NCBI GenBank assembly: GCA_963771175.1
Contig: CAVYSY010000035.1
Location: 35,482-99,481, forward strand
Direction: 5' to 3'
From: an uncultured delta proteobacterium
GTDB lineage: Bacteria; Myxococcota; Myxococcia; Myxococcales; Myxococcaceae
Length of the DNA: 64,000 bases
Position 1 is the stretch's first letter; each line of letters begins with the position of its first letter. A program made the position numbers and the translations under genes. Shown here piece after piece: positions 7,774-49,172 of this stretch. A model generated the notes under the pieces. That model had not been told where the DNA came from and made no database searches. It saw nothing but the letters and a program-made list of their open reading frames with translations.

Positions 7774-7797
7774 TATTCCCGTTCACCACGAGCCGCT

Positions 7798-9483: not shown

Positions 9484-9544
9484 GAGGCTCGCCAGCTTAA
9501 TCCACCGTGAAGGTGACCCCTTGTCCGGGAGTGCTGATGCCCGC

Positions 9545-11779: not shown

Positions 11780-11834
11780 TCGTTGCAGTGACATATCGAC
11801 CTCCGCGAGAGTCGTCAGACGCGGATTCTCAATA

Positions 11835-13877: not shown

Positions 13878-13891
13878 GGGGGCTCCGTGCC

Positions 13892-15888: not shown

Positions 15889-15971
15889 GCGCGTGTCCCT
15901 CCCGGAGAGAGCTGCCCGGTACCTCGAACGCTCCCGGCTCTCCGGACCACGCCCGAACTCGCTCCGGCCCT

Positions 15972-15987
15972 AGCAGCCCGCGTGCCA
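15972..15987 (-). promoter_or_regulatory. Sigma54 (-24/-12) promoter of opgG operon
   Basis: TGGCACGCGGGCTGCT, GG-N10-GC, about 85 nt upstream of opgG. Confidence 0.65.
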
Positions 15988-16152
15988 CTCGAGCCGGGTG
16001 CTCCGGGGAGGTGCGCGAACGTGAAGGTGTGGAGCAGAGGGACAGTGGAGGCGGCGGCGTTGTCCCTCTTCTCCACAGGCGGCTCGCGGGGAGCCGGGGA
16101 GGGCGCCCGCGAAGCAAGGACCCCGAGTGCAGGTGCAATGCGAATGCGAGTC

Positions 16153-17945: not shown

Positions 17946-17968
17946 CGCCTCGATTCCTCCGTGCCTCC

Positions 17969-24178: not shown

Positions 24179-25789
24179 GGGGTGGTGCTGAAAGCTGCCT
24201 GGACCTCGCCCTGGCGCCTCGCGGCGAAGTTCAGCAGGCCGCTCGTGCCGGTGAGCGCGTCCTGGAACTCCTGGGCGCTGTTCAGGAAGGTGAAGCCCGG
24301 CTGCTCCGCGTTCTCACCCACCACATACGGGGCGATGAGTGCGTGCTCCGCGCTCAGGCGCTCCCGCAGGCTCTCCGGGGAGAGCGGACCCTGCACCACC
24401 TCCAGGGCATACTGCGCGTAGCTGGCCCGGTAGGTGGGGTCGTCGAGCAGGTAGCGGATGAGCGGCCAGGTCGCGTCCACGGTGCTCTGCGTCAGCGACG
24501 TCGCCCGCCCCATGCCGTCACCCATGGACCGGTCATGGTCCCAGGTAATCCAGTGCAGGCGCCCGCCATCCCCCGGGTGGGCATAGAGGTAGTAGTTGTG
24601 CGACATGGCCCCGTAGGTGTCCCAGTTCTGCAGCACCGCGTTGACCGCGAGCCACTTGAGGAAGCCAGGGACGTTCAGCTTCTCCTCGAGGCGCGCGCGC
24701 CAGGCCGCCGCGTCCGTGCGGTCCGAGTTGAGCGCGGCGATGGCCTCCTCCACGGGCGCCCAGTTGTTCTCCGCGGCCTTCGTCTCCGGCTCGAAGGAGG
24801 CCGAGTCGAAGGCCTGCCACCGGGCCCCCGTGCCATCCGCCTCGTAGAGCGCGCCGCTGTCGTCACCGAAGTTGCGGGTCGAGCAGCGAATCCTGCGGGT
24901 CCTCGGAGAGCGTGTAGAGGCCGAAGTACTGGGAGCCCTCTCCGTGGTCCACGTACAGGGCGACGAAGGAGGTGTAGCTGGTCGGCACTCCGGCCGCGCG
25001 GAAGATGTCCGTGGCCACCTTGTTGCGGATCAGCGACTTGTCGGCCACGGAGTTGGAGAGGGACAGCTTGTCGAAGCCGTAGAAGCGCTGGTCCTCGATC
25101 TCCGGGTGATCGTCCTCGAACTCGTCGAAGTTCAACCGCAGCGGCAGCTTGCCCACGCCGCTGCTCCACGCCTGCGCCAGCGAGGAGTTGCCCTTGAAGC
25201 GGATCCCCACGTACCACCAGGTCTTGCCCTCGAAGCGAACCGTCGAGGGCACGTACACCGGCGTGTTGGGGATGATGTCCCCGGCGCCGCCTCCACCCGG
25301 TGCGCCGCCTCCACCCGGTGCGCCGCCTCCACCCGGGCCGCCCGGGGGACGGCACAGGAGTTGCCCGTCCGGCGTGCTGCCGCAGGTGCTGGTGAAGGCA
25401 GTGCCCTGGATGGTGGCGCTGCAGGAGTCACCCGCCGCCTTGCCCTGGCAGGCCTCCACGAGCTCGGTGGGGAGCATCCCACCGCCGCCCGGGCCACCCG
25501 GCGGGACGCCACCATCGGTCGTCCCGCCGCCCGGGACTCCGCCCGTGCGCGAGCCGAACGCGCCCGCCATGGCGGTCATGTCGTCCTGCATCTTCTGCCA
25601 GTCCTCGGGCGCGATGGTCACGTCGAGCCGCAGCACCTTCCCCTCGGGAAAGACGACGTCATAGGCGGGGGTGGCGTCCTTCCCGTGCGTCGCCTCGGTC
25701 CATCCTTCGGGGCGATCGACGCCTCCACAGGCGGTGCTGAAGGTGAAGGCGAGTGCGGCGAGTGCTCCAAGACGCGGACTTCTTTGCAT
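24175..25789 (-). CDS. CotH-family kinase lipoprotein (frameshift near 24870)
   Basis: Lipobox FSTAC, GIRFKGNSSL, RLNFDEF, YFGLYTLSE, NWDTY..SHNYYLY, WDHDRS; ATGA overlap with VTC gene. Confidence 0.88.
25284..25337. repeat. Three 18-nt tandem repeats encoding PGGGGA linker
   Basis: GCGCCGCCTCCACCCGGT x3. Confidence 0.9.
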
Positions 25790-25882
25790 GGGGGTCCTCT
25801 CATCAGGGTGGCGGTGCTCCGCCGCCAGTGCGTGCTGCCGAGTCAGCACTGGCGCTGCGAGTTGGCACCCTGAGGGAGGTCC

Positions 25883-29600: not shown

Positions 29601-30020
29601 CCGGGAGGCGGTGCGCAGGGGCTGGAGGAGGCGCTGCGCCTGCACGTCGAGAAGTACTTGCCGGACTACATGGCGCCGCAGAGCTGGATTGTCCTGGACG
29701 CGCTGCCGCTGACGGCCAACAGCAAGGTCGATACGAAGAAGCTGCGCCAGCTGGCCACGTCCTCCCAGTCGCGCAGGCAGGACAGCCAGCAGGGGGAGGG
29801 GAACAGCGAGGTCGCCCTCATCCTGCGGCTCGCGGCGCAGGTGCTCGGCGTGCCCGCGGACTCCCTCTCCGCCACCCAGAACCTGGCGGAGCAGGGCCTG
29901 TCGTCGCTCTTCGCCGTTCGGCTCGTCAACCTCTTGGCCGCAGCCTGGAACACCCGGCTCTCCTACACGCTCATCTTCAACTATCCGAGCGCGGTGCAGC
30001 TGGCGGCGTATCGCAGTGGC
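26628..30020 (+). other. Loading ACP and heterocyclisation NRPS module (Cy-A-PCP), cysteine predicted
   Basis: [19 protein letters not shown] (DxxxxD), [43 protein letters not shown]; pocket residues read by eye as DLWNMSLIW(K); PCP GLSSL. Confidence 0.85.
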
Positions 30021-33000
30021 CGCGCGGCGACGCGAGCCCCGGTGCGCCGCGACGGCCCGGCGGTGAACCCGGCGGAGCCCATTGCCATCGTGGCCCGGGC
30101 GTGCCGGCTGCCGGGCGACGTCCTGTCGCCGGACGACCTGTGGGAGATGTTGCTGGGCGGGACGGACTGCGTGACGGAGGTCCCCGCCTCGCGCTTCGAC
30201 ATCGACGAGGTGTTCGACGCGAACCCGAACGTGGTGGGGCGCAGCTACACCCGGCGCGGCGCCTTCATGCACGAGGTCGAGAGCTTCGACCACGACTTCT
30301 TCGGCATCCCGGTGGCGGAAGCCCGCGCCATGGATCCGCAGCAGCGCCTGTTGCTGGAGGTCGCCTACGAGGCCTTCCACGCCGCGGGCTATGACAAGGA
30401 GCGCCTGCGCGGTTCGTCCACCGGCGTCTTCATCGGGCAGATGAACTACGACTGGATGACGGACTTCGGTCACATCACCGACTACGCCGGGACCGGGTCG
30501 GCGCCGTCCATCTCCTCCAATCGCATCTCCTTCGCGCTCGACCTCGCCGGCCCGAGCATGACGCTGGACACGGCCTGCTCGTCGTCGCTGGTCGCCGTGG
30601 ACGCGGCCGTCACCAAGCTGCGCGCTGGCACCTGCCGCATGGCCCTGGCCGGTGGCGCGAACATGATCCTGTGCGCCACGCCCTACGTGACCACGTGTCA
30701 GGCGCGCATGCTTTCGGTGGACAGCCGCTGCGCCACCTTCGACAGTGCCGCCAACGGCATCGCGCGAGGCGAGGGCATTGGCGTCGTGGTGCTCAAGCGC
30801 CTGAGCGATGCGCAGGCGGACGGCGATCCGGTGCTGGCGGTGATTCGCGGCTCGGCGGTGAACCAGGACGGCCGCAGCGCTTCGCTGACGGCGCCCAACG
30901 GACTGGCGCAGGAGGCCGTCATCCGGCAGGCGTTGGACGTCGCGGGCCTGGAGGGGCGCGATGTCGACTACGTCGAATGCCACGGCACTGGCACGTCGCT
31001 GGGCGACCCGATTGAAGTCGAAGCGCTCAAGAACGTGCTGGGGGAGCGGCGCGAGAAGCCCGTGGTGCTGGGCGCCATCAAGAGCAACATCGGGCACCTG
31101 GAGGGTGCCGCGGGTGTGGTGGGGCTCATCAAAGCGGTGGAGGTGCTGCGTCGCCGTGAGGCGCCCGGCAACGTGCACTTCAAGACGCTGAACCCGAAGA
31201 TCGACCTGGAGGGCTTCGCCGCCGTCATCCCGACCCGGCCGACGGCGCTGGGGCAGACCGGGGCCAGCCATCCTCTCGTGGCGAGCGTTTCTTCGTTCGG
31301 GTACGGCGGCACCAACGCCCACGTCGTGCTCGAGTCCTGGGAGGCGCCCGCGGGCAGCAAGCAGGTCCCGCCCGCGGACGCGCTCTGGCTGTTCACCGGA
31401 CAGGGCTCGCTGGTGCCGGGGGCGGCGAAGGGGCTTTACGAGGCCAATGCCGTCTTCCGGGATGCGCTGGATCGGTACGCGGCGGTGCTGGAGTCGAAGG
31501 TGGAGGTGCCGCTCCTGAAGCTGCTGCTCTCCTCGGAGGGCGGCGTCGCGGAGCTGGTGCAGGAGACCCAGTACGCGCAGCCGGCAATCGTGGCGCTGCA
31601 ACTGGCGCAGGTGGCCATGTGGCAGGCGCGAGGAATGCGCCCGGAGGCGGTGCTGGGCCATTCGGTGGGCGAGTTCGCGGCGGCGGTGGTCGCGGGGGTG
31701 ATGACCGAGGAGGAGGCGCTGGAGCTGGCCGCGCTGAGGGGACGGCTGATGTCGCAGTGCCCGCGAGGAGGCATGGCGGCGGTGAGGGCGCCGGCGGAGC
31801 AGGTCAAGCCGCTGCTGCCGGGCGAGCTGGTGGTGGCAGCGGAGAACGAGCGGGCGATGACGGTGGTGGCGGGGCCGAAGGAGGCCCTGCAAAGGTTCGT
31901 CACGGAATCGCTCGGAGTGGCGCACACGATGCTGGCGGTGTCGCATGCGTTCCATTCACCGATGATGGAACCGGCGGCGGCTGAGTTCCGGCGGAGCTTG
32001 GAAGGGAAGACGTTCCAGGAGCCGCGGGGCGTGCGGTTCATCTCGACGCTGACGGGCGGGGTGGAGACGGCGCGGCTGAAGACGGCGGAGTACTGGGCCG
32101 AGCAGATGGTGCAGCCGGTGCGCTTCCTGCGAGCGGTGGAGACGGCATGGGCGGAGGGGACGGCGAAGACGGTCGTGGAGCTGGGGCCGGGGTCGACGCT
32201 GCTCACGTTGGCGAAGCGGATCGTGGGAGAGGAGGGGCCGCGCTGGGTCGCATCGGGCCAGGCGTTCCGATGGCGCCCGGGTCCGCGACTGTTCCGGCAC
32301 GTGCCACTGGGGTGGGGCAAGCCGGTGTCGAAGTTCGGGGGCGCCAAGGCGAAGTCCGCCGTGGAGCAGGCAACGCCCGCCACCTGCGTGTACGAAATGA
32401 CGTGGATGCCCTTGCCTCCCGAGACCGGGAGCACCCGCCACGAAGGCAAGCACCTGTTGCTGTCGCGGGACAGTGGTGGAGGGAGCGCTGCCCGAGGGCT
32501 GGCGGCGGTGGTGGCGAAGGAGGAGGAGCAGCTGCTGGCCGAGGTCTCACGCCAGCGGTGGATGACGGTGGCGCTCTGGGGGCAGCAACACCGAGGAGGA
32601 CGTGGAGCTGGGCCTGAGGCTGCTCCAGACGGCACAGGCCGACCGGCTGGTGTTCGTGACCGGGGCGGAGAGCGACGGAGACGCGGGCCTGTGGGGCCTG
32701 GCGCGGACGATGCGGCTGGAGAGGCCGGACCTGCGGGTGCGCTGCATTGAAAGGGCGGCGGGAGCGTTGGCGAAGGTCCTCACGCTGGCGACGAGCGCCG
32801 AGGCGGAAGACGAGCTGTCGGTGGATGAGGCCGGGACGGTAAGAGTCCCCCGGCTGCGCCGCTGCGCGGACGTGGGAGGCACCGAGAAGCTGGCGGTGCG
32901 CCCGGACGCCACGTACGTCATCAGCGGGGGCCAGGGTGCACTGGGGAAGGTGGCGGCCCGGCTGCTGGTGGAGCGAGGAGCCACGCACGTCCTGCTCCTG

Positions 33001-36000
33001 TCCCGGACGGCAGCGGCACCGGTGACACCGGAGTGGGTGGCGCTGCAAGCGAAGGCGCGGGTGGAGAGCCTGTCGTGCGACGTGTCAAGGCTGGAGAGCG
33101 TGCGCGGGGCGAGGCAGTGGCTGGAGGAAGCAGGCTGGCCCGTGGTGGGAGGAGTGGTGCACGCGGCGGGAGTGTTGAGCGACGGCACCATCCCGAACCA
33201 GTCGGCGGAGAAGCTAAGGCTGGCCTACGGGGCGAAGGTGCACGGCGCGAGGAACCTGAGGGAGGTGTTCGCACCGCCGGACTTCCTGGTGCTGTTCTCC
33301 TCGACGGCCGCGGCCTTTGGTTCGGCGGCCCAGGGTAGCTACGCGGCGGCGAACGCGACGCTGGATGCGCTGGCGCGGAAGTGGTCGGCGGCGGGAGAGG
33401 CGGTGCTGTCGGTGCAGTGGGGCGCGTGGTCCGACGGCGGCATGGCGGCGCGACACGACGCGTTCAAGCGGTCGGAAGCCGAGGGCCTGGGAAGCATCAG
33501 TGACGCGCTGGGAACGGCGGTGCTCGAGAAGCTGCTGGCGGCAGGCAAGCGGGGAACGGTCTGCGTCTCGCCCATCGACTGGAGCCGGCTGACCCTCGAG
33601 AGCCCTCGGTTCGAATTGCTCGCAGGGCCGGGGGGCTCGACGAAGCGCCAGAGCTGGAGCCGCCTGGCGCTGCAGCAGTTGGTGCGGGACTGCGTCCTCC
33701 AGTTCATTCCTTCCAGCGCGGTGGAGGTCAACCGCTCGTTCATGGAGGCGGGCTTCTCCTCGCTGGATCTGGTGCAGTTCCGTAGGCAGTTGCTCGCGCG
33801 GCTGCCGGACTCGGTCGAGCTTCCGGTCCACTTCGCCTTCAACTACCCCACCGAGGAGGACGTCACCAACCACCTGTTCGAACAGCTCCAGGTCAAGGCC
33901 GAGCCAGCTCCTGGCGCGAGTGGCATGTGGACGCTGCTGAACGGCCGGACCCAGGGAACGCCGCTCTTCCTCGTCGGCGGCGTGATGGGCACTGTGGAGA
34001 AGACCTTCGGGGCCCTGGCCGCGGCACTGCCGGTGCCGGTCTATGCCGCCATGCCGGGCATCCCCGCGGTCATCGACCCCGCCCAGACGAACCTGGAGGG
34101 GCTCGCGGCGGAGCTGCGCGCGTCCATGGAGAGCACCGCCGCGTGTGATGCGTACACAGTCGGAGGCCTGTCCTTCGGCGCGGCGGTCGCATTCGGAATG
34201 GGCTTGCAGCTGGAGCGCGAAGGCAGGCTGGCCCGGATCGTGATGCTGGATCCCCGGCACATGCCGCCGTTCGTGGCGCCGGAGGCCCCGGCGCCCTTCG
34301 AAACGCTGCTGGAGCACTACACCCCGTCCGGCATGGTCCGGTCGCCCGTGCTCGTGTTCCAGAGCGCGATTCCGCCGCTCGAGCGCCAGTCGGGAGATGA
34401 TGCGCGAAGCGTCGCGCTCCTTCCAGGACGACACCGCCGTCCTGGAGCGCTGCCGCGCGATGTGCCCGTCCATGGAAGTCATCCGGAGCGACGGGCACCA
34501 CTTCAACCTGCTCAACAAGCACTACGAGCCGATCGCCGCACGCATCGAGCACGACCTCACCGCGCCGCCCGCGGAGGAGGGAGTGGCGGAGGCGATCGCC
34601 ATCGTGGGCCGGGCGTGCCGCCTGCCCGGCAACGTCCGGTCTCCCGACGAGCTGTGGAAGATGCTGCTGGCGGGAACCGACTGCGTGACCGACATCCCGG
34701 CGTCGCGCTTCGATATCGACGAGGTGTTCGATGCGAACCCCGATGTGGCGGGCCGCAGCTACACCCGGCGTGGCGCCTTCATGAACGAAGTCGAGAGCTT
34801 CGACCACGACTTCTTCGGCATCTCGGTGGCGGAAGCCCGCGCCATGGATCCGCAGCAGCGCCTGCTGCTGGAGGTTGCCTACGAGGCGTTCCATGACGCG
34901 GGTTACGACAAGAAGCGCCTGCGGGGCTCGCCGACGAGTGTTCACATCGGTCTGGCCAACGACGACTGGACCACGATGGGCCGCGACCACGAGGCCCACA
35001 GCCCACACTTCGGCGCGGGCGTCTCCGGGTCGATCGCTTCCAATCGCATCTCCTACCTGCTGGGGCTCACCGGACCGAGCATGACGTTGGACACCGCCTG
35101 TTCGTCGTCGCTGGTGGCGGTGGACCTGGCGGTGGAGAAGCTGCGCAGCCGCATCTGTTCCATGGCGCTGGTCGGTGGCGTCAACGTGATGTTGCACCAC
35201 CGAATGTTCGTGAGCGCGTGCGCGACCAAGGCCCTGTCCCCCGCGGGGCGCTGCGCGACCTTCGACGCGTCGGCGGATGGCTACTGCCGGGGCGAGGGCG
35301 TGGGCGCGGTAGTCCTCAAGCGCCTCAGCGACGCACTGGCGGACGGCGACGAGGTGCTGGCGGTGATTCGCGGCACCGCGGTGAACCAGGACGGCCGAAG
35401 CGCTTCGCTGACGGCGCCCAATGGGCTGGCGCAGGAGGCCGTCATCCGGCAGGCGCTGGGCGTCGCGGGCCTGGAGGGACGGGAGGTCGACTACGTCGAA
35501 TGCCATGGCACCGGTACATCGCTGGGCGATCCGATTGAAGTCGGAGCGCTCAAGAACGTGCTGGGGGAGCGGCGTGAGAAGCCCGTGGTGCTGGGCGCCA
35601 TCAAGAGCAACATCGGGCACCTGGAAGGGGCCGCCGGGGTGGTGGGGCTCATCAAGGCGGTGGAGGTGCTGCGCCGCCGTGAAGCGCCCGGCAACGTGCA
35701 CTTCAAGACGCTGAACCCGAAGATCGATCTGTCGGGATTCGCGGCCGTCATTCCGACGGGAGCGACTGCGTTGGGCGGGAAGGAGGACGCGCGTCCGCTC
35801 GTCGCAGGGGTTTCGTCGTTCGGCTTCGGTGGGACCAATGCCCACGTGGTGCTGGAGTCCTACGAGAAGGCCAGCGCCGGCGCGGTCGTGGAGACCCGGC
35901 CGCGCATGGAGTACGCGCCGCGGTTCCTGCCCTGGCGGCGTGTGCCGCATCCGTTCCTGAGCCGCAAGGACGAGACCGGCTTCGTGGCGGTGCTGGCGGG

Positions 36001-39000
36001 AGAGCAGGCGGAGCGGTGGAAGGACCACCGCATCGCCGAACAGGTGCTGGTGCCCGCAGCGAGTCACCTGACGATGCTGGGCGGCGCGGCGCTGTTGAAG
36101 CAGGGCCGCGATGCCGTCAAGGCGATGGGCGTGGAGGTCCAGGACGTGGTGATGCCGCGTCCGCTGGTGGTGGGGAGCGGGGGCAGCGTGGTCCGCTGTG
36201 TCGCCAACGGCCCACAGTGGAGCGTGCAGGAGGAGCGCAACGGGAGCAGTGAATTCGTGGCGAGCTGCCGGGCCACGCGGATCCTGGGCAGTGCGGATGT
36301 GGCGCGCAGCGACGTGGAGGTCGAAGCCGTGCGCGGCCGCTGTGTCCCGGCGGACGTGGATGCGCTGTACGGCCTGCTGTCCCGCCAGGGCGTGCAGTTC
36401 GGACGTGGCTACCGCAACCTGACGGAGCTGTCCCTGGGCGAAGAGGAGGCCATCGCGCGGGTCGAGGTGGAGCAGGCGTCCGTGGTGGACCGGGGCCTGA
36501 CGCTGGTGCACCCGGCGACGCTGGACGCGGGCATTCAGTTGCTCGGGCTGTGGGGGATGAAGACCTGCGGCGTCTGCCTGCCGTTCAACGTGCAGAGCGC
36601 GCGACTGTTCTCGGTGGAGGAGCAGCCGCGAAAGCTGTGGGCGTACGCGAGGGTGAGCGCGAGCAGTGCCAGGAGCGTGGAAGGAACGGTGACGCTCTTT
36701 GGCGACGATGGAGAAGTGTATGCGGTGCTCGAAGGACTGACCTGCCGACAGGCGAGCGTGGACACGCGCGTCCAGGAGAGTGTCTTCGAGACGGAGTGGA
36801 TGGCGGTGGCATCGGCACCGGGTCCGCTCGTCGCACAGGGTGGCGCACACCTGCTGCTGTCGCGGGAAGTGGTGGAGGGAGCGCTGCCCGAGGGCTGGCA
36901 GGTGGTGGTGGCGAAGGAGGAGGAGCAGCTGCTGGCCGAGGTCTCACGCCAGCGGTGGATGACGGTGGCGCTCTGGGGGAGCAACACCGAGGAGGACGTG
37001 GAGCTGGGCTTGCGGCTGCTGCAGACGGCACAGGCCGACCGGCTGGTGTTCGTGACGAAGGCGGAGAGCGACGGAGACGCGGGCTTGTGGGGCCTGGCGC
37101 GGACGATGCGGCTGGAGAGGCCGGACCTGCGGGTGCGCTGCATTGAAAGGGCGGCGGGAGCGTTGGCGAAGGTCCTCACGCTGGCGACGAGCGCCGAGGC
37201 GGAAGACGAGCTGTCGGTGGATGAGGCCGGGACGGTAAGAGTCCCCCGGCTGCGCCGCTGCGCGGACGTGGGAGGCACCGAGAAGCTGGCGGTGCGCCCG
37301 GACGCCACGTACGTCATCAGCGGGGGCCAGGGTGCACTGGGGAAGGTGGCGGCCCGGCTGCTGGTGGAGCGAGGAGCCACGCACGTCCTGCTCCTGTCCC
37401 GGACGGCAGCGGCACCGGTGACACCGGAGTGGGTGGCGCTGCAAGCGAAGGCGCGGGTGGAGAGCCTGTCGTGCGACGTGTCAAGGCTGGAGAGCGTGCG
37501 CGGGGCGAGGCAGTGGCTGGAGGAAGCAGGCTGGCCCGTGGTGGGAGGAGTGGTGCACGCGGCGGGAGTGTTGAGCGACGGCACCATCCCGAACCAGTCG
37601 GCGGAGAAGCTAAGGCTGGCCTACGGGGCGAAGGTGCACGGCGCGAGGAACCTGAGGGAGGTGTTCGCACCGCCGGACTTCCTGGTGCTGTTCTCCTCTG
37701 CGGCGGCGGTCTTCGGTTCCTCGGGGCAGGGCAGCTACGCGGCGGCGAACGCGACGCTGGACGCGCTGGCGCGGAAGTGGTCGGCGGCGGGAGAGGCGGT
37801 GCTGTCGGTGCAGTGGGGTGCGTGGTCCGACGGCGGCATGGCGGCGCGGCACGACGCGTTCAAGCGAGCCGAGGCAGGTGGCTTCGGGAGCATCAGCGAC
37901 GCGTTGGGAATGGCGGCACTCGAGGAGTTGCTGGCGGCAGGCAAGCGGGGAACGGTCTGCGTCTCCCCGATTGACTGGAGCCGGCTCCAGCTGGAGCAGC
38001 CGCTCATCTCCCGCTTCCGCCCCAAGCGAAGCGAGAGCAAGGCGCAGCGGCGTACGGAGTCGAAGGGCGGCCCCACGGTGGCGGAGCTGGCCGCGCTGGT
38101 GCGTCGGGCGGCGGCCGAGTCGATGGGCCTGCCCGCGGGCGGCCAGGTCATCGACGACGAGCCGCTGATGGCGCAGGGGCTGGACTCGTTGGGCGCGGTC
38201 GGTCTGGCGCAGATACTCAGCCGGGAGCTGGGCCTGACGTTGGGCGCGGTGTTCGTGCTGAATCATCCGACGCTCGAGGACATGGCGGCGGCGCTCGCGG
38301 CTCGCCTCGAAAACACGACGCCGAGCGCGCCACAGCCTCGCCCGCGAGTGCAGCGCTCCGAGGAGCCCATCGCCATCGTGGGAACGGCGTGCCGGCTGCC
38401 CGGCAATGTCCGCTCGCCGGACGAGATGTGGGAGATGCTGCTGGAGGGGCGGGATTGCGTGACGGAGATTCCCTCGTCGCGCTTCGACATCGACGCGGTG
38501 TACGACGCCAACCAGGACGTCGCGGGCTGCAGCTACACGCGGCGCGGGGCCTTCATGACCGGGGTCGAGAGCTTCGACCTCGACTTCTTCGGCATCCCCG
38601 TCGCGGAGGCCCGGGCCATGGACCCGCATCAGCGACTGTTGCTCGAGGTGGCCTACGAGGCGTTCCACGATGCCGGCTATGACAGGAAGCGCCTGCGCGG
38701 CTCCTCCACCGGTGTCTTCGTCGGCGTCGCCAACCAGGATTGGATGATCGTCTCCGGGGAGAGCGAGGCGAAGAATCCCTACTTCGGCGCTGGCGTTTCC
38801 TCTTCCATCACGTCCAACCGCATCTCCTACCTGCTCGGGCTCACCGGACCGAGCATGACGCTGGACACGGCCTGCTCGTCATCGCTGGTGGCGGTGGACC
38901 TGGCGGTGGAGAAGCTGCGCAGTGGTGTGTGCTCGACGGCGCTCGTGGGTGGCGTCAACGTCATGCTGCACCACCGCACCTTCGTCGGCTGCTGCGCCGC

Positions 39001-42000
39001 CAAGATGCTGTCCGTGGAGGGCCGCTGCGCGACCTTCGACGCGTCGGCGGACGGCTACTGCCGCGGAGAAGGCGTGGGCGCGGTGGTGCTCAAGCGCCTC
39101 GGCGACGCGCTGGCGGATGGTGACGAGGTGCTGGCGGTGATTCGCGGCACCGCGGTCAACCAGGACGGCCGCAGCACGTCACTGACCGCGCCGAATGGTC
39201 TGGCGCAGGAGGCGGTCATCCGGCAGGCGCTGGACGTCGCGGGTCTGGAAGGGCGGGAGGTCGACTACGTCGAATGCCACGGCACCGGCACGTCGCTGGG
39301 CGACCCGATTGAAGTCGAGGCACTCAAGAATGTGCTGGGAGAACGGCGCGACAAGCCCGTGGTGCTGGGCGCCATCAAGAGCAACATCGGCCACCTCGAA
39401 GGGGCCGCCGGAGTGGCGGGGCTCATCAAGGCGGTGGAGGTCCTGCGCCGCCGCGAGGCGCCGGGCAACGTCCACTTCAAGGCGCTGAATCCGAAGATTG
39501 ACCTGGCGGGGTTCGCCGCGGTCATCCCGACCGCGCCGGTGCCGTTGGGGCGGAAGGGGGACTCGCGGCCGCTCGTCGCGGGGGTCTCGTCGTTCGGCTT
39601 CGGTGGGACCAACGCCCATGTGGTGCTGGAGTCCTACGCGCATGCTGGAGCCGGCGCGGTGGCCGAGCGCCGGGCGCGCATGCAGTACGCGCCTCGATTC
39701 CTGCCGTGGCGGCGGTTGCCGCATCCGCTCCTGAGCCGCGAGGACGAGACCGGGTTCGTGGCGGCGCTGAGCGGAGAGCAGGCGGAGCGCTGGAAGGACC
39801 ACCGCATCGCCGAGCAGGTGCTGGTGCCCGCCGCGAGTCACCTGACGATGCTGGGCGGTGCGGTGCTGCTGAAGCAGGGCATCGACGGCATCAAGGCCCC
39901 TGGCGTCGAAGTCGAGGACGTCGTCATGCCGCGTCCGCTGGTGGTGGGGAGCGGGGGCAGCGTGGTGCGCTGTGTCGCCAACGGCACCCAGTGGAGCGTG
40001 GAAGGCGAGCGGGACGGCCTCGAGGAAGTGGTGGCGAGCTGTCGATCCGCTCGGGTCCTGAGCAGTGTCGACCTGATGAGCAGCGACGTGGAGGTCGAAG
40101 CGGTGCGTGGCCGCTGCCCTCCGATGGACGTGGAGGCGCTGTACGAGACGATGTCGCATCTTGGGGCCCGGTTCGGGCCCGGCTACCGCAATCTGAAGAC
40201 GCTGCATCTGGGGGAGGAAGAGGCAATCGCCCGGGTCGAGGTGGAGCATGCGTCCGTGGTGGACCGGGGCCTGACGTTGCTGCATCCGGCGACGCTGGAT
40301 GCCGGCATCCAGCTCCTCGGGCTGTGCGGGATGAAGACTTGCGGAGTCTGTGTCCCGTTCAACGTGCAGAGCGCGCGACTCTTCTCGGTGGAGGAGCAGC
40401 CCCGAGGACTGTGGGCATACGCGAGGGTGACCGAGCGCAGCGCCAGGAGCGTGGAAGGAACAGTGACGCTCTTTGGCGACGATGGAGAAGTGTACGCGGT
40501 GCTCGAAGGGCTGACCTGCCGACAGGCGAGCGTGGACACGCGCGTCCAGGAGAGTGTCTTCGAGACGGAGTGGATGGCGGTGGCATCGGCACCGGGTCCG
40601 CTCGTCGCACAGGGTGGCGCACACCTGCTGCTGTCGAGGGAAGTGGTGGAGGGAGCGCTGCCCGAGGGCTGGCAGGCGGTGGTGGCGAAGGAGGAGGAGC
40701 AGCTGCTGGCCGAGGTCTCACGCCAGCGGTGGACGACGGTGGCGCTCTGGGGAAGCAACACCGAGGAGGACGTGGAGCTGGGCTTGCGGCTGCTGCAGAC
40801 GGCACAGGCCGACCGGCTGGTGTTCGTGACGAAGGCGGAGAGCGACGGAGACGCGGGACTGTGGGGCCTGGCGCGGACGATGCGGCTGGAGAGGCCGGAC
40901 CTGCGGGTGCGCTGCATTGAAAGGGCGGCGGGAGCGTTGGCGAAGGTCCTCACGCTGGCGACGAGCGCCGAGGCGGAAGACGAGCTGTCGGTGGATGAGG
41001 CCGGGACGGTACGAGTCCCCCGGCTGCGCCGCTGCGCGGACGTGGGAGGCACCGAGAAGCTGGCGGTGCGCCCGGACGCCACGTACGTCATCAGCGGGGG
41101 CCAGGGTGCGCTGGGGAAGGTGGCGGCCCGGCTGCTGGTGGAGCGAGGAGCCACGCACGTCCTGCTCCTGTCCCGGACGGCAGCGGCACCGGTGACACCG
41201 GAGTGGGTGGCGCTGCAAGCGAAGGCGCGGGTGGAGAGCCTGTCGTGCGACGTGTCAAGGCTGGAGAGCGTGCGCGGGGCGAGGCAGTGGCTGGAGGAAG
41301 CAGGCTGGCCCGTGGTGGGAGGAGTGGTGCACGCGGCGGGGGTGTTGAGCGACGGAACCATCCCGAACCAGTCGGCGGAGAAGCTAAGGCTGGCCTACGG
41401 GGCGAAGGTGCACGGCGCGAGGAACCTGAGGGAGGTGTTCGCACCGCCGGACTTCCTGGTGCTGTTCTCCTCTGCGGCGGCGGTCTTCGGTTCCTCGGGG
41501 CAGGGCAGCTACGCGGCGGCGAACGCGACGCTGGACGCGCTGGCGCGGAAGTGGTCGGCGGCGGGAGAGGCGGTGCTGTCGGTGCAGTGGGGTGCGTGGT
41601 CCGACGGCGGCATGGCGGCGCGGCACGACGCGTTCAAGCGAGCCGAGGCAGGTGGCTTCGGGAGCATCAGCGACGCGTTGGGAATGGCGGCACTCGAAGA
41701 GTTGCTGGCGGCAGGCAAGCGGGGAACGGTCTGCGTCTCCCCGATTGACTGGAGCCGGCTCCAGCTGGAGCAGCCGCTCATCTCCCGCTTCCGGCCCAAG
41801 CGAAGCGAGAGCAAGGCGCAGCGGCGTACGGAGTCGAAGGGCGGCCCCACGGTGGCGGAGCTGGCCGCGCTGGTGCGTCGGGCGGCGGCCGAGTCGATGG
41901 GCCTGCCCGCGGGCGGCCAGGTCATCGACGACGAGCCGCTGATGGCGCAGGGGCTGGACTCGTTGGGCGCGGTCGGCCTGGCGCAGATACTCAGCCGGGA

Positions 42001-45000
42001 GCTGGGCCTGACGTTGGGCGCGGTGTTCGTGCTGAATCACCCGACGGTAACGGAGTTGGCCACGGCGCTCGCGGCTCGTCTCGAGAGCGCGACGCCGAGC
42101 ACGCCTTCGCCCGCCCCACGGACGCAGCGGCAACCGCGGCGCTCCGAGGAGCCCATCGCCATCGTGTCCCGGGCGTGCCGGTTGCCGGGCGACGTCCTGT
42201 CGCCGGACGAGATGTGGGAGATGTTGCTGGCGGGCCGGGACTGCGTGACGGAGGTCCCCGCCTCGCGCTTCGACATCGACGAGGTCTACGACCCCAACCA
42301 GAACGTGGTGGGCCGCAGCTACACGCGGCACGGCGCCTTCATGAACGAGGTCGAGAGCTTCGACCACGACTTCTTCGGCATCCCGGTCGCGGAAGCCAGG
42401 GCCATGGATCCGCAGCAGCGCCTGCTGTTGGAGGTCGCCTACGAGGCCTTCCACGCCGCGGGCTACGACAAGGCGAGCCTGCGCTCGTCGCGCATCGGCG
42501 TGTTCGTGGGGCAGATGAACCACGACTGGGCGCACATGAACGCGGAGGACCAGCTCTCGGATCCGTTCTTTGGCGCAGGCTCCTCGGCGTCCATCACGTC
42601 CAACCGCATCTCCTACCTGCTGGGGCTCACCGGACCGAGCATGACGCTGGACACCGCCTGTTCGTCGTCGCTGGTGGCGGTGGACCTGGCGGTGGAGAAG
42701 CTGCGCAGCGGCGTGTGTTCCGCGGCGCTCGTGGGCGGCGTCAACGTCATGCTGCACCACCGCACCTTCGTCGGCTGCTGCTCCGCGAAGATGCTGTCCG
42801 CCAAGGGGCGCTGCGCGACCTTCGATGCGTCCGCGGACGGCTACTGCCGGGGCGAGGGCGTGGGCGCGGTGGTCCTCAAGCGCCTCGGCGATGCCCTGGC
42901 GAACGGTGATGAGGTGCTGGCGGTGATCCGCGGCACCGCGGTCAATCAGGACGGCCGCAGCGCTTCGCTGACGGCGCCCAACGGGCTGGCGCAGGAGGCG
43001 GTCATCCGGCAGGCGCTGGAGGTCGCCGGCCTGGAAGGCCACGAAGTGGACTACGTCGAATGCCACGGCACCGGCACCTCGCTGGGCGACCCGATTGAAG
43101 TCGAGGCGCTCAAGAACGTGCTGGGTGCGCGGCGTGACAAGCCCGTGGTGCTGGGCGCGGTGAAGAGCAACATCGGGCACTTGGAGGGCGCCGCAGGTGT
43201 GGTGGGGCTCATCAAGGCGGTGGAGGTGCTGCGCCGTCGCAAGGCGCCCGGCAACGTCCATTTCAAGACGCTGAACCCCAAGATCGATCTGGCGGGCTTC
43301 GCCGCCATCATTCCGACCCAGCCGACTGCGTTGGGGCGGAAGGGGGAGAAGCGGCCGCTCGTCGCCGGGGTCTCGTCGTTCGGCTTCGGCGGCACCAACG
43401 CTCACGTCGTACTCGAATCCTGGGATGCGCCTGCGTCAGGCAAGGCGATCCCCTCTGCTACGGAAGTCGGGGGCTGGGAATGACAGTGCTATGGATGTTC
43501 ACCGGACAGGGCTCGCTGGTGCCAGGGGCGGCGAAGGGGCTTTACGAGGCGAATGCCGTCTTCCGGGACGCGCTGGACCGGTACGCGGCGGTGCTGGAGT
43601 CGAAGGTGGAGGTGCGGCTGCTGAAGCTGCTGCTCTCCGAGGAGAAGGACGTCGCGGAGTTGGTGCAGGAGACCCAGTACGCGCAGCCGGCAATCGTGGC
43701 GCTGCAACTGGCGCAGGTGGCCATGTGGCAGGCGCGAGGAATGAGCCCGGAGGCGGTGGTGGGCCACTCGGTGGGCGAGTTCGCGGCGGCGGTGGTCGCG
43801 GGGGTGATGACCGAGGAGGAGGCGCTGGAGCTGGCCGCGCTGAGGGGACGGCTGATGTCGCAGTGCCCGCGAGGAGGCATGGCGGCGGTGAGGGCGCCGG
43901 CGGAGCAGGTCAAGCCGCTGCTGCCGGGCGAGCTGGTGGTGGCAGCGGAGAACGAGCGGGCGATGACGGTGGTGGCGGGGCCGAAGGAGGCCCTGCAAAG
44001 GTTCGTCACGGAATCGCTCGGAGTGGCGCACACGATGCTGGCGGTGTCGCATGCGTTCCATTCACCGATGATGGAACCGGCGGCGGCTGAGTTCCGGCGG
44101 AGCTTGGAAGGGAAGACGTTCCAGGAACCGCGGGGCGTGCGGTTCATCTCGACGCTGACGGGCGGGGTGGAGACGGCGCGGCTGAAGACGGCGGAGTACT
44201 GGGCCGAGCAGATGGTGCAGCCGGTGCGCTTCCTGCGAGCGGTGGAGACAGCGTGGGCGGAGGGGGCGGCGAAGACGGTCGTGGAGCTGGGGCCGGGGTC
44301 GACGCTGCTCAAGCTGGCACAGCGGATCGTGGGGGAGGCGGGGCCGCAATGGGTCGCGTCGAGCCATGCGCTCCGATGGGGCCGCGGCCCTGGACTGTTC
44401 CGGCACGTGCCGCTGGGGTGGACCAAGCCTGGGGCGAATCCACGGGCCGCCAAGGCCGCGCCCGCGGAGCAGGCAACGCCCGCCACCAGCGTGTACGAGA
44501 CGGTGTGGGCCGCGTCCCCACCGGTCGCCACGCGAACGACGACCCACGGTGAACACCTGCTGCTGTCGAGGGAAGTGGTGGAGGGAGCGCTGCCCGAGGG
44601 CTGGCGGTCGGTGGTGGCGAAGGAGGAGGAGCAGCTGCTGGCCGAGGTCTCACGCCAGCGGTGGACGACGGTGGCGCTCTGGGGAAGCAACACCGAGGAG
44701 GACGTGGAGTTGGGCCTGCGGCTGCTGCAGACGGCACAGGCCGACCGGCTGGTGTTCGTGACGAAGGCGGAGAGCGACGGAGACGCGGGACTGTGGGGCC
44801 TGGCGCGGACGATGCGGCTGGAGAGGCCGGACCTGCGGGTGCGCTGCATTGAAAGGGCGGCGGGAGCGTTGGCGAAGGTCCTCACGCTGGCGACGAGCGC
44901 CGAGGCGGAAGACGAGCTGTCGGTGGATGAGGCCGGGACGGTAAGAGTCCCCCGGCTGCGCCGCTGCGCGGACGTGGGAGGCACCGAGAAGCTGGCGGTG

Positions 45001-48000
45001 CGCCCGGACGCCACGTACGTCATCAGCGGGGGCCAGGGTGCACTGGGGAAGGTGGCGGCCCGGCTGCTGGTGGAGCGAGGAGCCACGCACGTCCTGCTCC
45101 TGTCCCGGACGGCAGCGGCACCGGTGACACCGGAGTGGGTGGCGCTGCAAGCGAAGGCGCGGGTGGAGAGCCTGTCGTGCGACGTGTCAAGGCTGGAGAG
45201 CGTGCGCGGGGCGAGGCAGTGGCTGGAGGAAGCAGGCTGGCCCGTGGTGGGAGGAGTGGTGCACGCGGCGGGAGTGTTGAGCGACGGCACCATCCCGAAC
45301 CAGTCGGCGGAGAAGCTAAGGCTGGCCTACGGGGCGAAGGTGCACGGCGCGAGGAACCTGAGGGAGGTGTTCGCACCGCCGGACTTCCTGGTGCTGTTCT
45401 CCTCTGCGGCGGCGGTCTTCGGTTCCTCGGGGCAGGGCAGCTACGCGGCGGCGAACGCGACGCTGGACGCGCTGGCGCGGAAGTGGTCGGCGGCGGGAGA
45501 GGCGGTGCTGTCGGTGCAGTGGGGTGCATGGTCCGACGGCGGCATGGCGGCGCGGCACGACGCGTTCAAGCGAGCCGAGGCAGGTGGCTTCGGAAGCATC
45601 AGCGACGCGTTGGGAATGGCGGCACTCGAAGAGTTGCTGGCGGCAGGCAAGCGGGGAACGGTCTGCGTCTCCCCGATTGACTGGAGCCGGCTGCCAGCTG
45701 GAGCAGCCGCTCATCTCCCGCCTCCGCCCCAAGCAAGGCGTGAGCGCGTCGCAGCCGCAGGCCGGGCCTTCCGCCAGCCACGTCGTAGCGGAGGACCTGC
45801 TCGCGATGGTCCGGCAGGCCGCCGCTGAATCCATCGGCAAGCCCGTCGCGGACGATGCCTCCCTCCTGGACAGCGGGCTGGATTCGCTCGGCAGCGTGTC
45901 GCTGCGCAACCGCATCGCCTCGCGCCTGAACGTCGAGCTGTCGGCCGCCTTCGTGTTCGAGTTCCCGAGCGTGAACGCGATGGTCCGGCACCTGGCGACC
46001 CTGGCTCCCCGCGCCGCTGCCCGTCCGGTGTCCACGCCGACGCGGACCCACCTGCCCGTGCTCGTGATTGGCGCGGGCGTGGGCGGGCTCAGCTTCGCCA
46101 GGAAGCTGGAGAATGCGGGCACGTCCGTGGTCGTGATGGACGCGGCCGCGCACGTCGGCGGCGTCTGGCAGACGCTCGCCAATGCCTCGTCGAAGTTGCA
46201 GATCGACTCACCTGCCTACGACTTCGACAGCACGGCGATGCCGTCCCCGGGCGATCACAGCTGGAAGACCAGCTTCCCCTCGCAGCAGGAGATCCTGGCC
46301 GGTTGTCAGGGCACGGCGGAGGGCCTGCTCGGTCCCGTGTATCTGGAGTCGCGCGTCCAGAACGTGCGCAAGGTCGCTGACTCCGAATACGAGGTCACCT
46401 ACCAGCGCGCTGGACGGACGCAGCGGATGCGGGTCTCCGGCGTGGCCGCCATGACGGGCGGTCTGCACCGCCCTCGGCGTCACACGTTCCCAGGGGAGGA
46501 CGTATTCGGCGGGCACATCGGGCTCGGCATCGCCAACGACACGCCGCTCGAGGCCTTCCGCGGCGCCTCCGTGGTGATCGTGGGACACGGCGCCTTCGCC
46601 GTGGAGAACATGCGCACCGCCCTGGAGAACGGCGCCCGGCACGTGACCCTGCTGTGCCGTCAGCGGCACATGGTGCTCTCCACGTTCTGCAACTGGCTGC
46701 TCAATTCGAGCAAGGGCGTGATGCCCGTGTCCGACGTGGTGGACGTCATGCGCCCCTTCTACGCGGCGTGTGGCGTCGATGTGCAGGACCTGCACTCGCT
46801 GGCACGGGACACGACGGGCGAGTGGACGCTGGACCAGGCGACGGTGCCAGCTGGCTCCGACCTCTACTTCCTGGCCCAGATGATGGGCAAGCTGCGCATC
46901 GTCGTCGGAGAGACGTCCCACCTCACCGCCAACACGGTGGTGACCCGGGACGGTGAAGCGCTTGAGGCCGACATCTTCCTCAAGTGCCTGGGCTCGCACA
47001 CCGACGACTCGGTGCTGCTGGGACTCTTCGGCGAGGGCAGCCGGGTGCAGGGGCTCTGGATCAACGGCGACCCCAACCTCATCACGTACAACGATGGCGC
47101 GCAGGCGCCGCGCAAGGTCAAGTCGTTGATGTGCGCCAGCTACGCGTTCTTCGTGCAGGTCTTCGCGCCGGCCTACCTGCACTTCCGCGAGGACCGTGAC
47201 GCCCATGCACGCGCCCTGGCCCGCATCACCGCCGCGTCCCCGACGACCACCGACGCCGAGCGCGTGCTCCTCGAGCTGTGGGACTTCCTGGAGCCCTCCA
47301 AGCGCGTGTTGTCCGAACGCACCCTGGAGCTCCTCCCGTTCGACCGCTTCCAGGTCGAGCGTGAAGCGGAGTGGGCGCGCTACTGCCGGATGCTGGGGGG
47401 CACCGGAGAGGAGGGCCACGCGCTGTGGCGGCTCCTACGCCCGACGCTGGCGCTCGTGCATCGCCGCAACCCGCAGGCGCCCGTCGAGCTGCGCAGCCAC
47501 CATCCGCTGCTGGGCTCGCTGTCCGTGTTCGTACCGCGCCGCCCCCGGGTGCTGTTCCTGCCGGGACAGGGGACCAACGCGCGTCTTGCCCGCAGCCTGC
47601 TGGAGCGGACCGGATGGATCGACCGTTCGCACCTGGACTTCGTCGTGCCGGACGCGCCGTACGAAATGCCTGCCTTCACCAACGAGGTGCAGCTGGAGCA
47701 GATTGGACTGAGCCAACTGGTGAGCGTCGGGCTTTACGACAAGACGGCGCGCTACCGTGAATGGCGCGCCGGCTTCGAGGCGCTCTACCAGCGGCACCAC
47801 CACGGCACCGCGTTCGAGGTGACCGCCGAGGTCCGCGAGCAGTGGCGGGTGACCCTGGCGTACCTGCGCGAAGTCGTGCAGCGCCACGGACCGTTCGACG
47901 GCATCGCCGGCTTCTGCGAGGGCGCCGCGGTGGCTTCGGTGGCGCTGCACCTGCAGGCGCGCGGCGAGGACCAGGGGCTCGGCTCGGTTCGCTTCTTCGT

Positions 48001-48274
48001 GGCCATGTCCCCGTGGCGCTCGCCGATGCACCAGCAGGAGGGCATGTTCCGCCCGGACCAGCCGCTCCAACTGCCCATGCTCCAGATCGTCGGAGAGAAC
48101 GACATGGACGTGTTCCTGGGCGCGGCCCCGCACTTCTTCTCGGACTACGCGGGCGCCAGCGAGTTCCGCCACGCGGGGCAGCACGTCTATCCCCCGTTCA
48201 CCCCCGGCCTGGAGGCCAGGCTGCGCGAGTTGATCAGCGTGAGCAGCGAGGGAGGGCGCCGGGCCGCGACCTGA
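26628..48274 (+). CDS. Hybrid NRPS-PKS megasynthase, probably one ORF broken by single-base indels: ACP-Cy-A-PCP-KS-AT-KR-ACP-TE-KS-DH-KR-ACP-KS-DH-KR-ACP-KS-AT-KR-ACP-FMO-FSH1
   Basis: ORFs 26562, 26786, 28641, 32602, 34397, 43480 and 45524 overlap and mostly switch frame mid-domain (about 26772, 28675, 32585, 34392, 43472, 45695); all catalytic motifs readable. Confidence 0.85.
30075..34555 (+). other. PKS module 1 (KS-AT-KR-ACP) plus internal thioesterase
   Basis: DTACSSS/HGTGT/KSNIGH; GHSVG and HAFH (malonyl); GGQGALG, SYAAAN; GFSSL; TE GLSFG, MLDP, DGHHF. Confidence 0.85.
34590..38310 (+). other. PKS module 2 (KS-DH-KR-ACP), no AT
   Basis: KS end GTNAHVVLE is followed within about 30 aa by the DH ([26 protein letters not shown]); KR; GLDSL. 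Confidence 0.88.
38360..42085 (+). other. PKS module 3 (KS-DH-KR-ACP), no AT; duplicate of module 2
   Basis: Same motifs; KR-ACP offset by 3774 nt and nearly identical in DNA. Confidence 0.88.
42147..46000 (+). other. PKS module 4 (KS-AT-KR-ACP)
   Basis: KS motifs intact; FTGQG, GHSVG, HAFH; KR; GLDSL. Confidence 0.87.
46055..48274 (+). other. Terminal flavin monooxygenase-like domain and FSH1/LovG-like hydrolase
   Basis: [23 protein letters not shown]; then [32 protein letters not shown]. Confidence 0.75.
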
Positions 48275-48283
48275 GCCCGGCTC

Positions 48284-48823
48284 TCACGCCGCGAGAAGCT
48301 GGCGCACCCGGGCCGCGCCAGCGCCGCCGTCGAGTGGCAGCGGCAGGAAGTACTGCAGCTGCCACTTCTGCGTGCGGACCGCTTCCGGCACCACCGGTTG
48401 GGACCAGGGGGGATAGACGCGGATGGCCCGCTTGCCCCCCTTGTGGGCACGCGACATGACGCCCTTCTCCACCAGGGTCTTCTGGGGGAACACGAACTGT
48501 CCGCGGTGGGTCGCATCGCCCACGCTCACCACGACGAGCGCCACGCCGTCGTCGCTGTCGAGCGGGGCGATCTCCGCATCCGGCGTCGGCCGCTTCCAGA
48601 GCGTCACGAACTGCCCGACCTTGGTCGGCGTCGTCTTGGCCACGCGGAAGACGACGGTACGGCCGTCGAGCGCGAGGCGGCAGGCGCCATACTCGGCGCT
48701 CTCCGCTTCGCGCACCGCAGGGGTCGTGACGCTCAGCCCGGCCGGCTCGTATGCGTCCCGGATGGCGGTCAGCAGATCGTGTGGGAGATGGCCCGATGCG
48801 GGGTTTGTCGGGTGTGCGCTCAT
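48284..48823 (-). CDS. MepB-family protein
   Basis: ESAEYGA, FRVAKTTPTKVGQFVTLWKR, GQFVFP, GKRAIRVYPPW, TQKWQ. Confidence 0.85.
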   Translation of the reverse strand: MSAHPTNPASGHLPHDLLTAIRDAYEPAGLSVTTPAVREAESAEYGACRLALDGRTVVFRVAKTTPTKVGQFVTLWKRPTPDAEIAPLDSDDGVALVVVSVGDATHRGQFVFPQKTLVEKGVMSRAHKGGKRAIRVYPPWSQPVVPEAVRTQKWQLQYFLPLPLDGGAGAARVRQLLAA

Positions 48824-49172
48824 GCTTGGGGCTCCTCTGGCCATGTCGGTGGCTATTCCTGCAACGTCCTATGGGTCGCTCGCCAATCCGCAGATAAGGG
48901 CTGCAAAGGCCATGGGTGTCAATCGTCCTGCTGCGACTGCGCGAACTGATTGCTCGTGAGGTGAAGGTGACGGTCGGAGACGCGCCTCGCGGTCCGATGG
49001 TCTGGCGTCATTCCCGACGATGCCAGCCTCCGACCGTCCGGGGCCGGGTCGCACGCATGCTCCTCGCCCGAGTGAGGGCGGGAGCCGCACCCCTCCCGAT
49101 GGGGCAATGGGTGGGCCCTGCCCACATCGCTAGCCTTTCCAGCGCAGGGCGAGTGGGGAGGGGGACGGGACG

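Follow-up and report, generated by a model that had tools for sequence, protein, structure and literature searches.

Organization of the NRPS-PKS Locus

We analyzed a 64,000-nucleotide stretch of DNA (the window) from an uncultured delta proteobacterium of the Myxococcaceae (assembly GCA_963771175.1, contig CAVYSY010000035.1, positions 35,482 to 99,481). The analysis concerned the end of a nonribosomal peptide synthetase-polyketide synthase (NRPS-PKS) system, where the last acyl carrier protein (ACP) domain is followed by a flavin monooxygenase (FMO) domain and an FSH1-like hydrolase domain with a cysteine at the nucleophile position. The open reading frames (ORFs) running along the plus strand from 26786 to 48274 were found to represent a single NRPS-PKS system composed of two genes (Table 1). 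The first encodes condensation (C), adenylation (A) and peptidyl carrier protein (PCP) domains and a series of ketosynthase (KS), acyltransferase (AT), ketoreductase (KR), dehydratase (DH), ACP and thioesterase (TE) domains, while the second encodes AT-KR-ACP-FMO-FSH1. Gene 2 encodes about 1597 amino acids once a single-base error is discounted, and ORF 45524-48274, which carries ACP, FMO and FSH1, is its C-terminal part.

All motifs quoted in the initial annotation of this region were recovered in ORF 45524-48274. These are the two Rossmann motifs, GAGVGG for FAD (from 46070) and GHGAFA for NADPH (from 46583), together with GGVW (from 46157), GEND and the cysteine elbow. The phosphopantetheine serine of the last ACP (GLDSLG) is encoded at 45884-45886. 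The triad residues are Cys798 (TGC at 47915-47917, in GFCEGA), Asp860 (48101-48103, in GEND) and His887 (48182-48184, in GQH).

The profile search that the annotation had proposed, with FSH1 (PF03959), FMO-like and Pyr_redox families, was run and all of them matched. Pyr_redox_2, NAD_binding_8, Pyr_redox_3 and FMO-like matched within residues 179-389, all above the curated Pfam cut-offs, and PF03959 matched residues 673-890 with an E of 3.2e-22 and 79.7 bits, where the cut-off is 21, and over positions 4-202 of the 211 in the profile. The assignment to an FMO-like flavoenzyme plus an FSH1-type hydrolase is in agreement with these matches. No Pfam match to the thioesterase family PF00975 was found in ORF 45524-48274, which bears out the earlier statement that a standard TE is missing after the last ACP; the line has a single TE, which lies internally, behind module 1. 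Altogether, the observation of an FMO-FSH1 terminus was confirmed, at a level far outside chance, while the interpretation attached to it was partly supported. An exhaustive HMMER search returned 1420 proteins with an E of 1e-3 or less, and in 74 of these E was 1e-30 or less. Both domains were spanned end to end by nine among the 150 HMMER matches listed.

The FSH1 Domain and Its Cysteine

A profile of 23 family members matched yeast FSH1 (PDB 1YCD) with an E of 3.3e-7. In the alignment LFLHG fell on LFLHG, GFCEG on GLSQG, and HxGxHvYP on HPGGHMVP, so that the serine of the GxSxG elbow of the FSH1 family is replaced by cysteine. The domain has an alpha/beta hydrolase fold which is closest to that of yeast FSH1. 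In an AlphaFold model of the domain (mean pLDDT 94.0, pTM 0.90; residues numbered from window position 47480) Cys146 is found where strand 141-145 passes into helix 147-160, the nucleophile elbow in its classical form. Asp208 comes after strand 200-205 and His235 after strand 226-231, the canonical positions of the acid and the histidine. Alignment and model both place the cysteine at the nucleophile elbow, as had been claimed from the sequence motifs.

The possibility that the TGC codon was miscalled from TCC was rejected. A contig from run X1 was 99.7% identical to 45694-48300 and had 11 differences in all, none of them at 47915-47917, and cysteine was found in 69 of 108 homologous domains. 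The cysteine is therefore real and conserved.

The 238 proteins collected included 115 FSH1-domain sequences, of which 108 cover the triad; this set is redundant, as members of 90% clusters were included. At the nucleophile position, 69 of the 108 domains had Cys, 31 had Gly and 8 had Ser. Histidine was present in all of them, and the acid was Asp in 71 and Glu in 37. Among representatives at 50% identity that cover the triad (n = 32), 24 carried Cys and eight carried Ser. FMO and hydrolase were fused in 88 of the 108 domains.

A quick maximum-likelihood tree was built from 60 rows with less than 90% identity, domains shorter than 200 residues being left out. It contained 31 Cys domains with an FMO, 11 Cys domains without, 10 Gly domains with an FMO and eight Ser domains without. 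Cysteine was retained in domains down to about 30% identity to that of the window. Glycine was restricted to one actinomycete clade, mostly Streptomyces, and requires a single change on the tree (SH-aLRT of the split 69; one Gly row was unresolved relative to a Cys pair). The Gly rows fall inside an actinobacterial clade (15 rows, fully supported), the three earliest branches of which (Amycolatopsis, Nocardia, and Actinopolyspora) have Cys. Serine was found only in proteins without an FMO, which were of the types KR-ACP-FSH1 and ACP-FSH1 and one stand-alone protein. Most of these domains follow directly on an ACP, where a TE would sit, which speaks for a family of hydrolases facing carrier proteins.

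Based on the tree and the distribution of nucleophiles, cysteine is the ancestral state, kept by selection, in all domains with an attached FMO, and glycine is a derived loss. By its sequence, the domain is an FSH1-family hydrolase with a conserved cysteine as nucleophile, a histidine that is kept throughout and Asp or Glu as the acid.

The FMO Domain Belongs to Class B

By sequence, the closest PDB entries to the FMO domain were type I Baeyer-Villiger monooxygenases (BVMOs), i.e., steroid, phenylacetone, and cyclohexanone monooxygenases, and FMOs, with E about 1e-8. An AlphaFold model of the domain had a pLDDT of 92.2. Foldseek returned at least 500 PDB matches to this model at E <= 0.001, and all among the matches listed were class B enzymes. 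The top matches (E 3.7e-21 to about 1e-17) were DiatB, LbmA Ox-ACP, ancestral FMOs, an N-oxygenase and many BVMOs, with near-equal scores. The model thus describes the domain as a single-component class B FAD/NADPH monooxygenase, and flavin binding is likely. Both nucleotide-binding motifs are intact and the class B model is confident, which agrees with the flavoenzyme named in the initial annotation.

The same does not apply to the Baeyer-Villiger type that had been suggested for this enzyme. The type I BVMO fingerprint FxGxxxHxxxW[P/D] was absent between the two Rossmann motifs of the window. Where steroid monooxygenase reads FTGDIVHTARWP in the HMMER alignment, the window has L for H, N for W, and D for P. 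The family alignment of 26 rows agreed with this, the fingerprint histidine being present in only one row (P0041, a distant FMO-only protein) and the tryptophan in none. The family has conserved motifs of its own, FxGxIxxG and KCLG[SF].

Gene Structure and Frame Breaks

The window has a G+C content of about 70%, and the plot of third-position GC (GC3) revealed switches of coding frame at about 28.6, 32.5, 34.3, 43.5, and 45.7 kb. Three of these are in gene 1 as assembled: the first within about 28573-28665, the second at about 32583 and the third within about 34378-34409. The second was placed by comparison of paralogues and the other two from Pfam and peptide coordinates. Comparison of nearly identical paralogous modules showed that the break at about 32583 is one inserted base (window CTCTGGGGGCAGC, paralogue CTCTGGGGGAGC), and that the break at 45693/45694 in gene 2 is likewise one extra base (window CGGCTGCCAGCTGG, paralogue CGGCTCCAGCTGG). 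The switch at 43480 is a true gene boundary, with the ATG of gene 2 overlapping the stop codon of gene 1 (ATGA) and parting KS from AT. The genes were found to be split between KS and AT also in the metagenome-assembled genomes (MAGs) of a Neptunochlamydia and a Xanthomonas. Accordingly, genes 1 and 2 were taken as the real units. We also considered 45524-48274 as a gene of its own and rejected this, as its first approximately 58 residues are out-of-frame KR and both paralogues and homologues run directly from KR to ACP.

A second contig of run X1, 79 bases long, spans 45693 with one base fewer and is otherwise identical to the window. Runs X2 and X4 cover the stretch only partly and X3 represents a more distant strain; the evidence on frame breaks is from X1. 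An intact orthologue of 1596 amino acids (P0232) is present in Corallococcus sp. BB11-1, with 75% and 84% identity to the two halves of gene 2. The genome assembly, a draft, has 58 contigs and a completeness of 81.66%. In the same window a CotH kinase gene is in two pieces, and two ABC transporter genes are in two and three pieces, in different frames. That genes unrelated to the PKS are also split suggests that single-base indel errors occur throughout the assembly, and the frame breaks in the PKS genes are most likely assembly errors rather than natural. Gene 2 is probably intact in nature, given the X1 contig without the extra base, the 1596-residue homologue and the broken non-PKS genes.

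All four PKS modules have KR regions of nearly identical protein sequence, and the two AT domains are likewise nearly identical. Such near-identical copies point to concerted evolution (gene conversion) between modules. Near-identical repeats are also difficult to assemble. Two of the four modules (KS-DH-KR-ACP) lack an AT. With a KS-ended subunit before it, the ATGA overlap and an AT of its own, the protein of gene 2 looks like an in-line split module.

Distribution of the Cassette

A search for related loci with the single terminal protein yielded four loci. Judged from these and other relatives, the terminus is part of a conserved cassette of two genes plus a MepB-like gene. Gene 1 of the cassette has the order C-A-PCP-KS-AT-KR-ACP-TE-KS-DH-KR-ACP-(KS-DH-KR-ACP)-KS and is followed by AT-KR-ACP-FMO-FSH1 and the MepB-like gene. 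The cassette was found in a Neptunochlamydia MAG (L013 and L003) and on a Vibrio plasmid (L014), and the terminal gene in three further loci.

In the Neptunochlamydia MAG, gene 1 is one intact ORF of 5603 amino acids with the same domain order, including the internal TE. Downstream are an AT-KR-ACP-FMO-FSH1 protein of 1619 amino acids, a phosphopantetheinyl transferase (PPTase), a metallo-beta-lactamase (MBL)-fold protein and a MepB-like protein, and a second MepB-like gene lies upstream. The conjugative plasmid VIBNI_pA of Vibrio nigripulchritudo (NC_015156.1, 39390-81570) carries the cassette with one module fewer. Here an alpha/beta hydrolase gene is followed by a gene for a C-A-PCP-KS-AT-KR-TE-KS-DH-KR-ACP-KS-AT protein of 4983 amino acids, a gene for a KR-ACP-FMO-FSH1 protein of 1298 amino acids, and genes for a metallophosphoesterase and a MepB family protein. 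The genes are thus split after the AT on the plasmid, whereas they are split before it in the window. The terminal gene was 61-73% identical in a Xanthomonas MAG (L001), a gammaproteobacterial MAG (L002) and Halalkalibacter (L004). The order KR-ACP-FMO-FSH1 was common to the window, L001, L003, and L014, with an extra N-terminal AT in the window. No canonical TE was found after the last ACP in the window, L001, L003, L004, or L014.

The MepB-like protein of the window was 46-55% identical to those of L002, L003, and L004. Its gene is located beside the terminal PKS gene in five of six distinct loci; the exception is L001, where a transposase follows. It may serve the cassette as a resistance or tailoring gene. 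Genes for both MepB-like and MBL-fold proteins adjoin the terminal gene in L002 and L004. A tblastn search of the window with the flanking homologues from L002-L004 found neither an MBL-fold nor a PPTase gene; only MepB matched.

The closest homologues of gene 2 were from Corallococcus, with 84-86% identity. In 30 other genomes, 17 of the same genus, only AT or KR matches to the 1596-residue query were found (best E 5.3e-55, compared to 0 for the window's genome). The lack of a full match in genomes of the same genus, the closest homologues being from Corallococcus and the plasmid-borne copy point to spread of the cassette by horizontal transfer. For the window itself, horizontal acquisition of the cassette is one explanation, and binning of the contig with the wrong genome (contamination estimate 4.52%) is the other.

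The FMO-FSH1 end-piece was, by sequence, found to recur in many unrelated bacteria, and the orphan cassette is far more widespread than the one published example would suggest. ACP-FMO-FSH1 proteins with cysteine (GFCQG) were also seen in the dinoflagellate Durusdinium trenchii (P0184, P0235, and P0236), one of them with 39% identity. A protein of 3715 amino acids (P0012), running from C-A-PCP to KR-ACP-FMO-FSH1, groups with the Durusdinium proteins on the tree. FSH1 domains at PKS termini are mentioned for dinoflagellate transcripts (PMC8283056). Literature searches on MepB with PKS, bacterial FSH1 release domains, Neptunochlamydia PKS and Vibrio nigripulchritudo PKS returned nothing on the cassette and no assigned product.

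Table 1. Positions of the genes, domains, and comparison features.
Feature	Position	Strand	Evidence
Gene 1: C-A-PCP-KS-AT-KR-ACP-TE-KS-DH-KR-ACP-KS-DH-KR-ACP-KS	26786..43483	+	Pfam on four ORF pieces, GC3 plot
Gene 2: AT-KR-ACP-FMO-FSH1	43480..48274	+	Pfam, paralogue comparison, homologues
AT domain	43492..44331	+	PF00698, E 6.5e-55, residues 5-284 of P0002
KR domain	45010..45537	+	PF08659, E 5.3e-49, residues 511-686 of P0002
Last ACP	45809..45994	+	PF00550 (PP-binding), E 1.3e-11, residues 96-157 of P0001 (ORF 45524-48274)
Class B flavin monooxygenase with C-terminal helical region	46052..47479	+	Pfam, PDB matches, AlphaFold, Foldseek
FSH1-like alpha/beta hydrolase, Cys-Asp-His triad	47540..48193	+	Pfam PF03959
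Internal type I TE, between module-1 ACP and next KS	33961..34561	+	PF00975; one frame change inside
Four near-identical KR regions	32600-33600, 36950-37990, 40720-41765, 44650-45700		
MepB-like gene	48284..48844	-	PF08877, E 3.2e-45
Split non-PKS genes (CotH kinase, two ABC transporters)	24175-25849, 16153-18051, 17969-19754	-	
Internal TE, Neptunochlamydia L013	protein 7421-16820, residues about 2442-2640	-	
Internal TE, Vibrio plasmid L014	protein 3272-18223, residues about 2452-2640	+	
MepB-like genes in relatives	L002 3575-4249; L003 14426-15112; L004 2774-3340; L013 18876-19619; L014 23027-23620		

Possible Function of the FMO-FSH1 Terminus

We favor the reading that 46052-48274 encodes the C-terminal didomain of the last NRPS-PKS subunit and that its FSH1 domain is an active off-loading or transfer catalyst, although we regard this as about an even call. 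The FMO would oxygenate the chain on the adjacent ACP. By analogy, this reaction would most likely be the epoxidation of an olefin, since the FMO of the characterized relative SdlR is an epoxidase and the two preceding KS-DH-KR-ACP modules should leave double bonds. The cysteine of FSH1 could then accept the acyl chain of the ACP in a thioester exchange, and the acyl-S-enzyme would be resolved by water or an internal hydroxyl (hydrolysis or lactonization), or the chain passed to another acceptor. The Gly-bearing relatives from Streptomyces would be a degenerate offshoot. Release through Cys-Asp-His, as proposed from the start, is plausible in view of the conservation of the triad.

Several observations weigh against this reading. 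According to the Figure 6 legend of Winter et al. (2024, PMC7619045), only the FMO of SdlR is active and its FSH1 domain is inactive. The subtype of the FMO is not singled out by structure, as nearly the same scores were obtained for epoxidase, N-oxygenase (LbmA-Ox), and BVMO structures. A conventional release catalyst, judged intact by its sequence, is located elsewhere in the same enzyme: the serine, aspartate and histidine of the internal type I TE (GGLSFG, DPRH, and GHHFN) are kept in all three complete assembly lines, i.e., the window, the Neptunochlamydia MAG and the Vibrio plasmid. Finally, possible trans-acting hydrolases are encoded nearby in relatives, with MBL-fold genes in L002, L003, and L004 and the alpha/beta hydrolase gene in L014. 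The internal TE is fused in frame to the next KS, and such a fixed internal position is unusual.

Most of these points would also fit an FSH1 domain that has no part in release and serves the FMO as a structural partner, or acts as an editing hydrolase at the most, with the chain leaving through the internal TE or a trans-acting hydrolase. The Gly nucleophile in 10 of the 60 non-redundant homologues, which nevertheless keep the domain, indicates that the fold can persist without catalysis. Even so we consider this explanation unlikely. Cysteine, acid and histidine are conserved together in very divergent members and the change to glycine is a single nested one, a pattern consistent with selection for catalysis in every lineage except one. 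The internal TE is located after module 1 and not at the end of the line, and the Ser-bearing relatives without FMO are placed exactly where a TE would be. A Baeyer-Villiger reaction on the ACP-bound chain, after which FSH1 would act as an esterase that cuts the ester and shortens or releases the chain, would account for the fusion of FMO and hydrolase in most of the homologous domains, which suggests coupled chemistry. The closest solved sequence relatives of the FMO are type I BVMOs, and on-line Baeyer-Villiger oxygenases are described in trans-AT PKSs (PMC6174933). Nevertheless, it is improbable, as the window has leucine and asparagine at the histidine and tryptophan positions of the fingerprint, other oxygenases are found at equal rank among the structural neighbors, and the reported activity of SdlR is epoxidation (PMC7619045). 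Furthermore, the KR of the last module is nearly identical to the other three, so that the nearest position should bear a beta-hydroxyl and not a ketone.

As assembled, the two PKS genes change frame four times, which could be taken to mean that the locus is a decaying pseudogene cluster and that the terminus has no present function. We find this very hard to believe. The CotH and ABC transporter genes are split in the same way, the genome is an incomplete draft of many contigs, GC3 is 0.83-0.97 in the coding frame on either side of every break, the X1 contig lacks the extra base at 45693, and intact homologues exist.

Returning to an active FSH1 domain, the intact internal TE and the terminal FSH1 together make this an enzyme with two hydrolase stations. 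Somewhat doubtfully, we put forward a wider proposal: Cys-Asp-His FSH1 domains may form an unrecognized class of PKS off-loading or transfer domains which act through an acyl-S-cysteine and are obligatorily coupled to an FMO. They would belong to an orphan two-station cassette that has spread across Myxococcota, Gammaproteobacteria, Bacillota, Chlamydiota, and Actinomycetota, with relatives in dinoflagellates, and the 'inactive' FSH1 of Streptomyces would have degenerated late from an active ancestor. If so, the stations may serve to make two chains and to join them afterwards, or the cysteine may hand the oxidized polyketide to an acceptor other than water.

The way in which a polyketide leaves its synthase decides the end-group and ring of the product, and new release or transfer domains are useful for engineering. 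If the favored reading is correct, a Cys-FSH1 domain with an on-line oxygenase adds a release logic to those of the standard TE, the reductase, condensation-like domains, and the sulfotransferase-TE, and the published view of FSH1 in KR-ACP-FMO-FSH1 proteins as dead weight is re-opened. The cassette is a good target for product discovery because no product was assigned to it in the literature searched and yet it is present in very different bacteria.

Comparison with Known Systems

The architecture KR-ACP-FMO-FSH1 is not unprecedented, as it was published for SdlR of the shuangdaolide pathway, where the class B FMO is described to carry out a remote 16,17-epoxidation (Winter et al., 2024, PMC7619045). 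The shuangdaolides are reported as products of a trans-AT PKS in Streptomyces sp. B59 (PMC9712229, PMC11610975). In the accounts consulted, only the oxygenase half of such an end-piece has been studied. Streptomyces proteins of about 1297 amino acids with the SdlR architecture were 52-56% identical to the didomain of the window, and these are exactly the proteins that carry the Gly nucleophile (GFGEG). SdlR itself probably belongs to this Gly clade, although no member of the protein sequence clusters carried the name SdlR or B59. The protein of the window differs from SdlR in having an N-terminal AT and in apparently being the in-line last subunit of an NRPS-PKS after a KS-ended protein. It also keeps the full Cys-Asp-His triad, whereas the Streptomyces clade has Gly, and, judged by the triad, the dead FSH1 domain reported for SdlR (PMC7619045) has no counterpart in the window. 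What appears to be new is the SdlR-type architecture in an unstudied form, namely in line, carrying an AT of its own and with the Cys-Asp-His triad complete.

Compared to the FSH1/LovG hydrolases (PF03959; yeast 1YCD and fungal LovG), the domain of the window has Cys in place of Ser, is bacterial, and, instead of being a stand-alone protein, is fused in cis to a PKS and an FMO. Its position after the last ACP and the conservation of the triad speak for a putative LovG-type release function. The FMO resembles the on-line oxygenases of trans-AT PKSs (OocK-type and LbmA Ox), which are class B flavoproteins integrated in or docked to the synthase and acting on ACP-bound chains. LbmA Ox of the lobatamide PKS (PDB 8ODW) was the fourth-best structural match (E 3.3e-20) and also matched in sequence (E 2e-6). 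In contrast to these enzymes, the FMO of the window lacks the BVMO fingerprint, has motifs of its own, and is always paired with FSH1 in its clade.

A Cys-His-acid triad on an alpha/beta hydrolase fold is also found in dienelactone hydrolase, which came up at ranks 26-36 of the fold matches (E about 1e-5). However, dienelactone hydrolase belongs to another sub-family, and FSH1, acyl-protein thioesterases, and carboxylesterases are much closer to the domain of the window. The same kind of triad on this fold occurs in the cysteine-containing thioesterases of the obafluorin and sulfazecin NRPSs.

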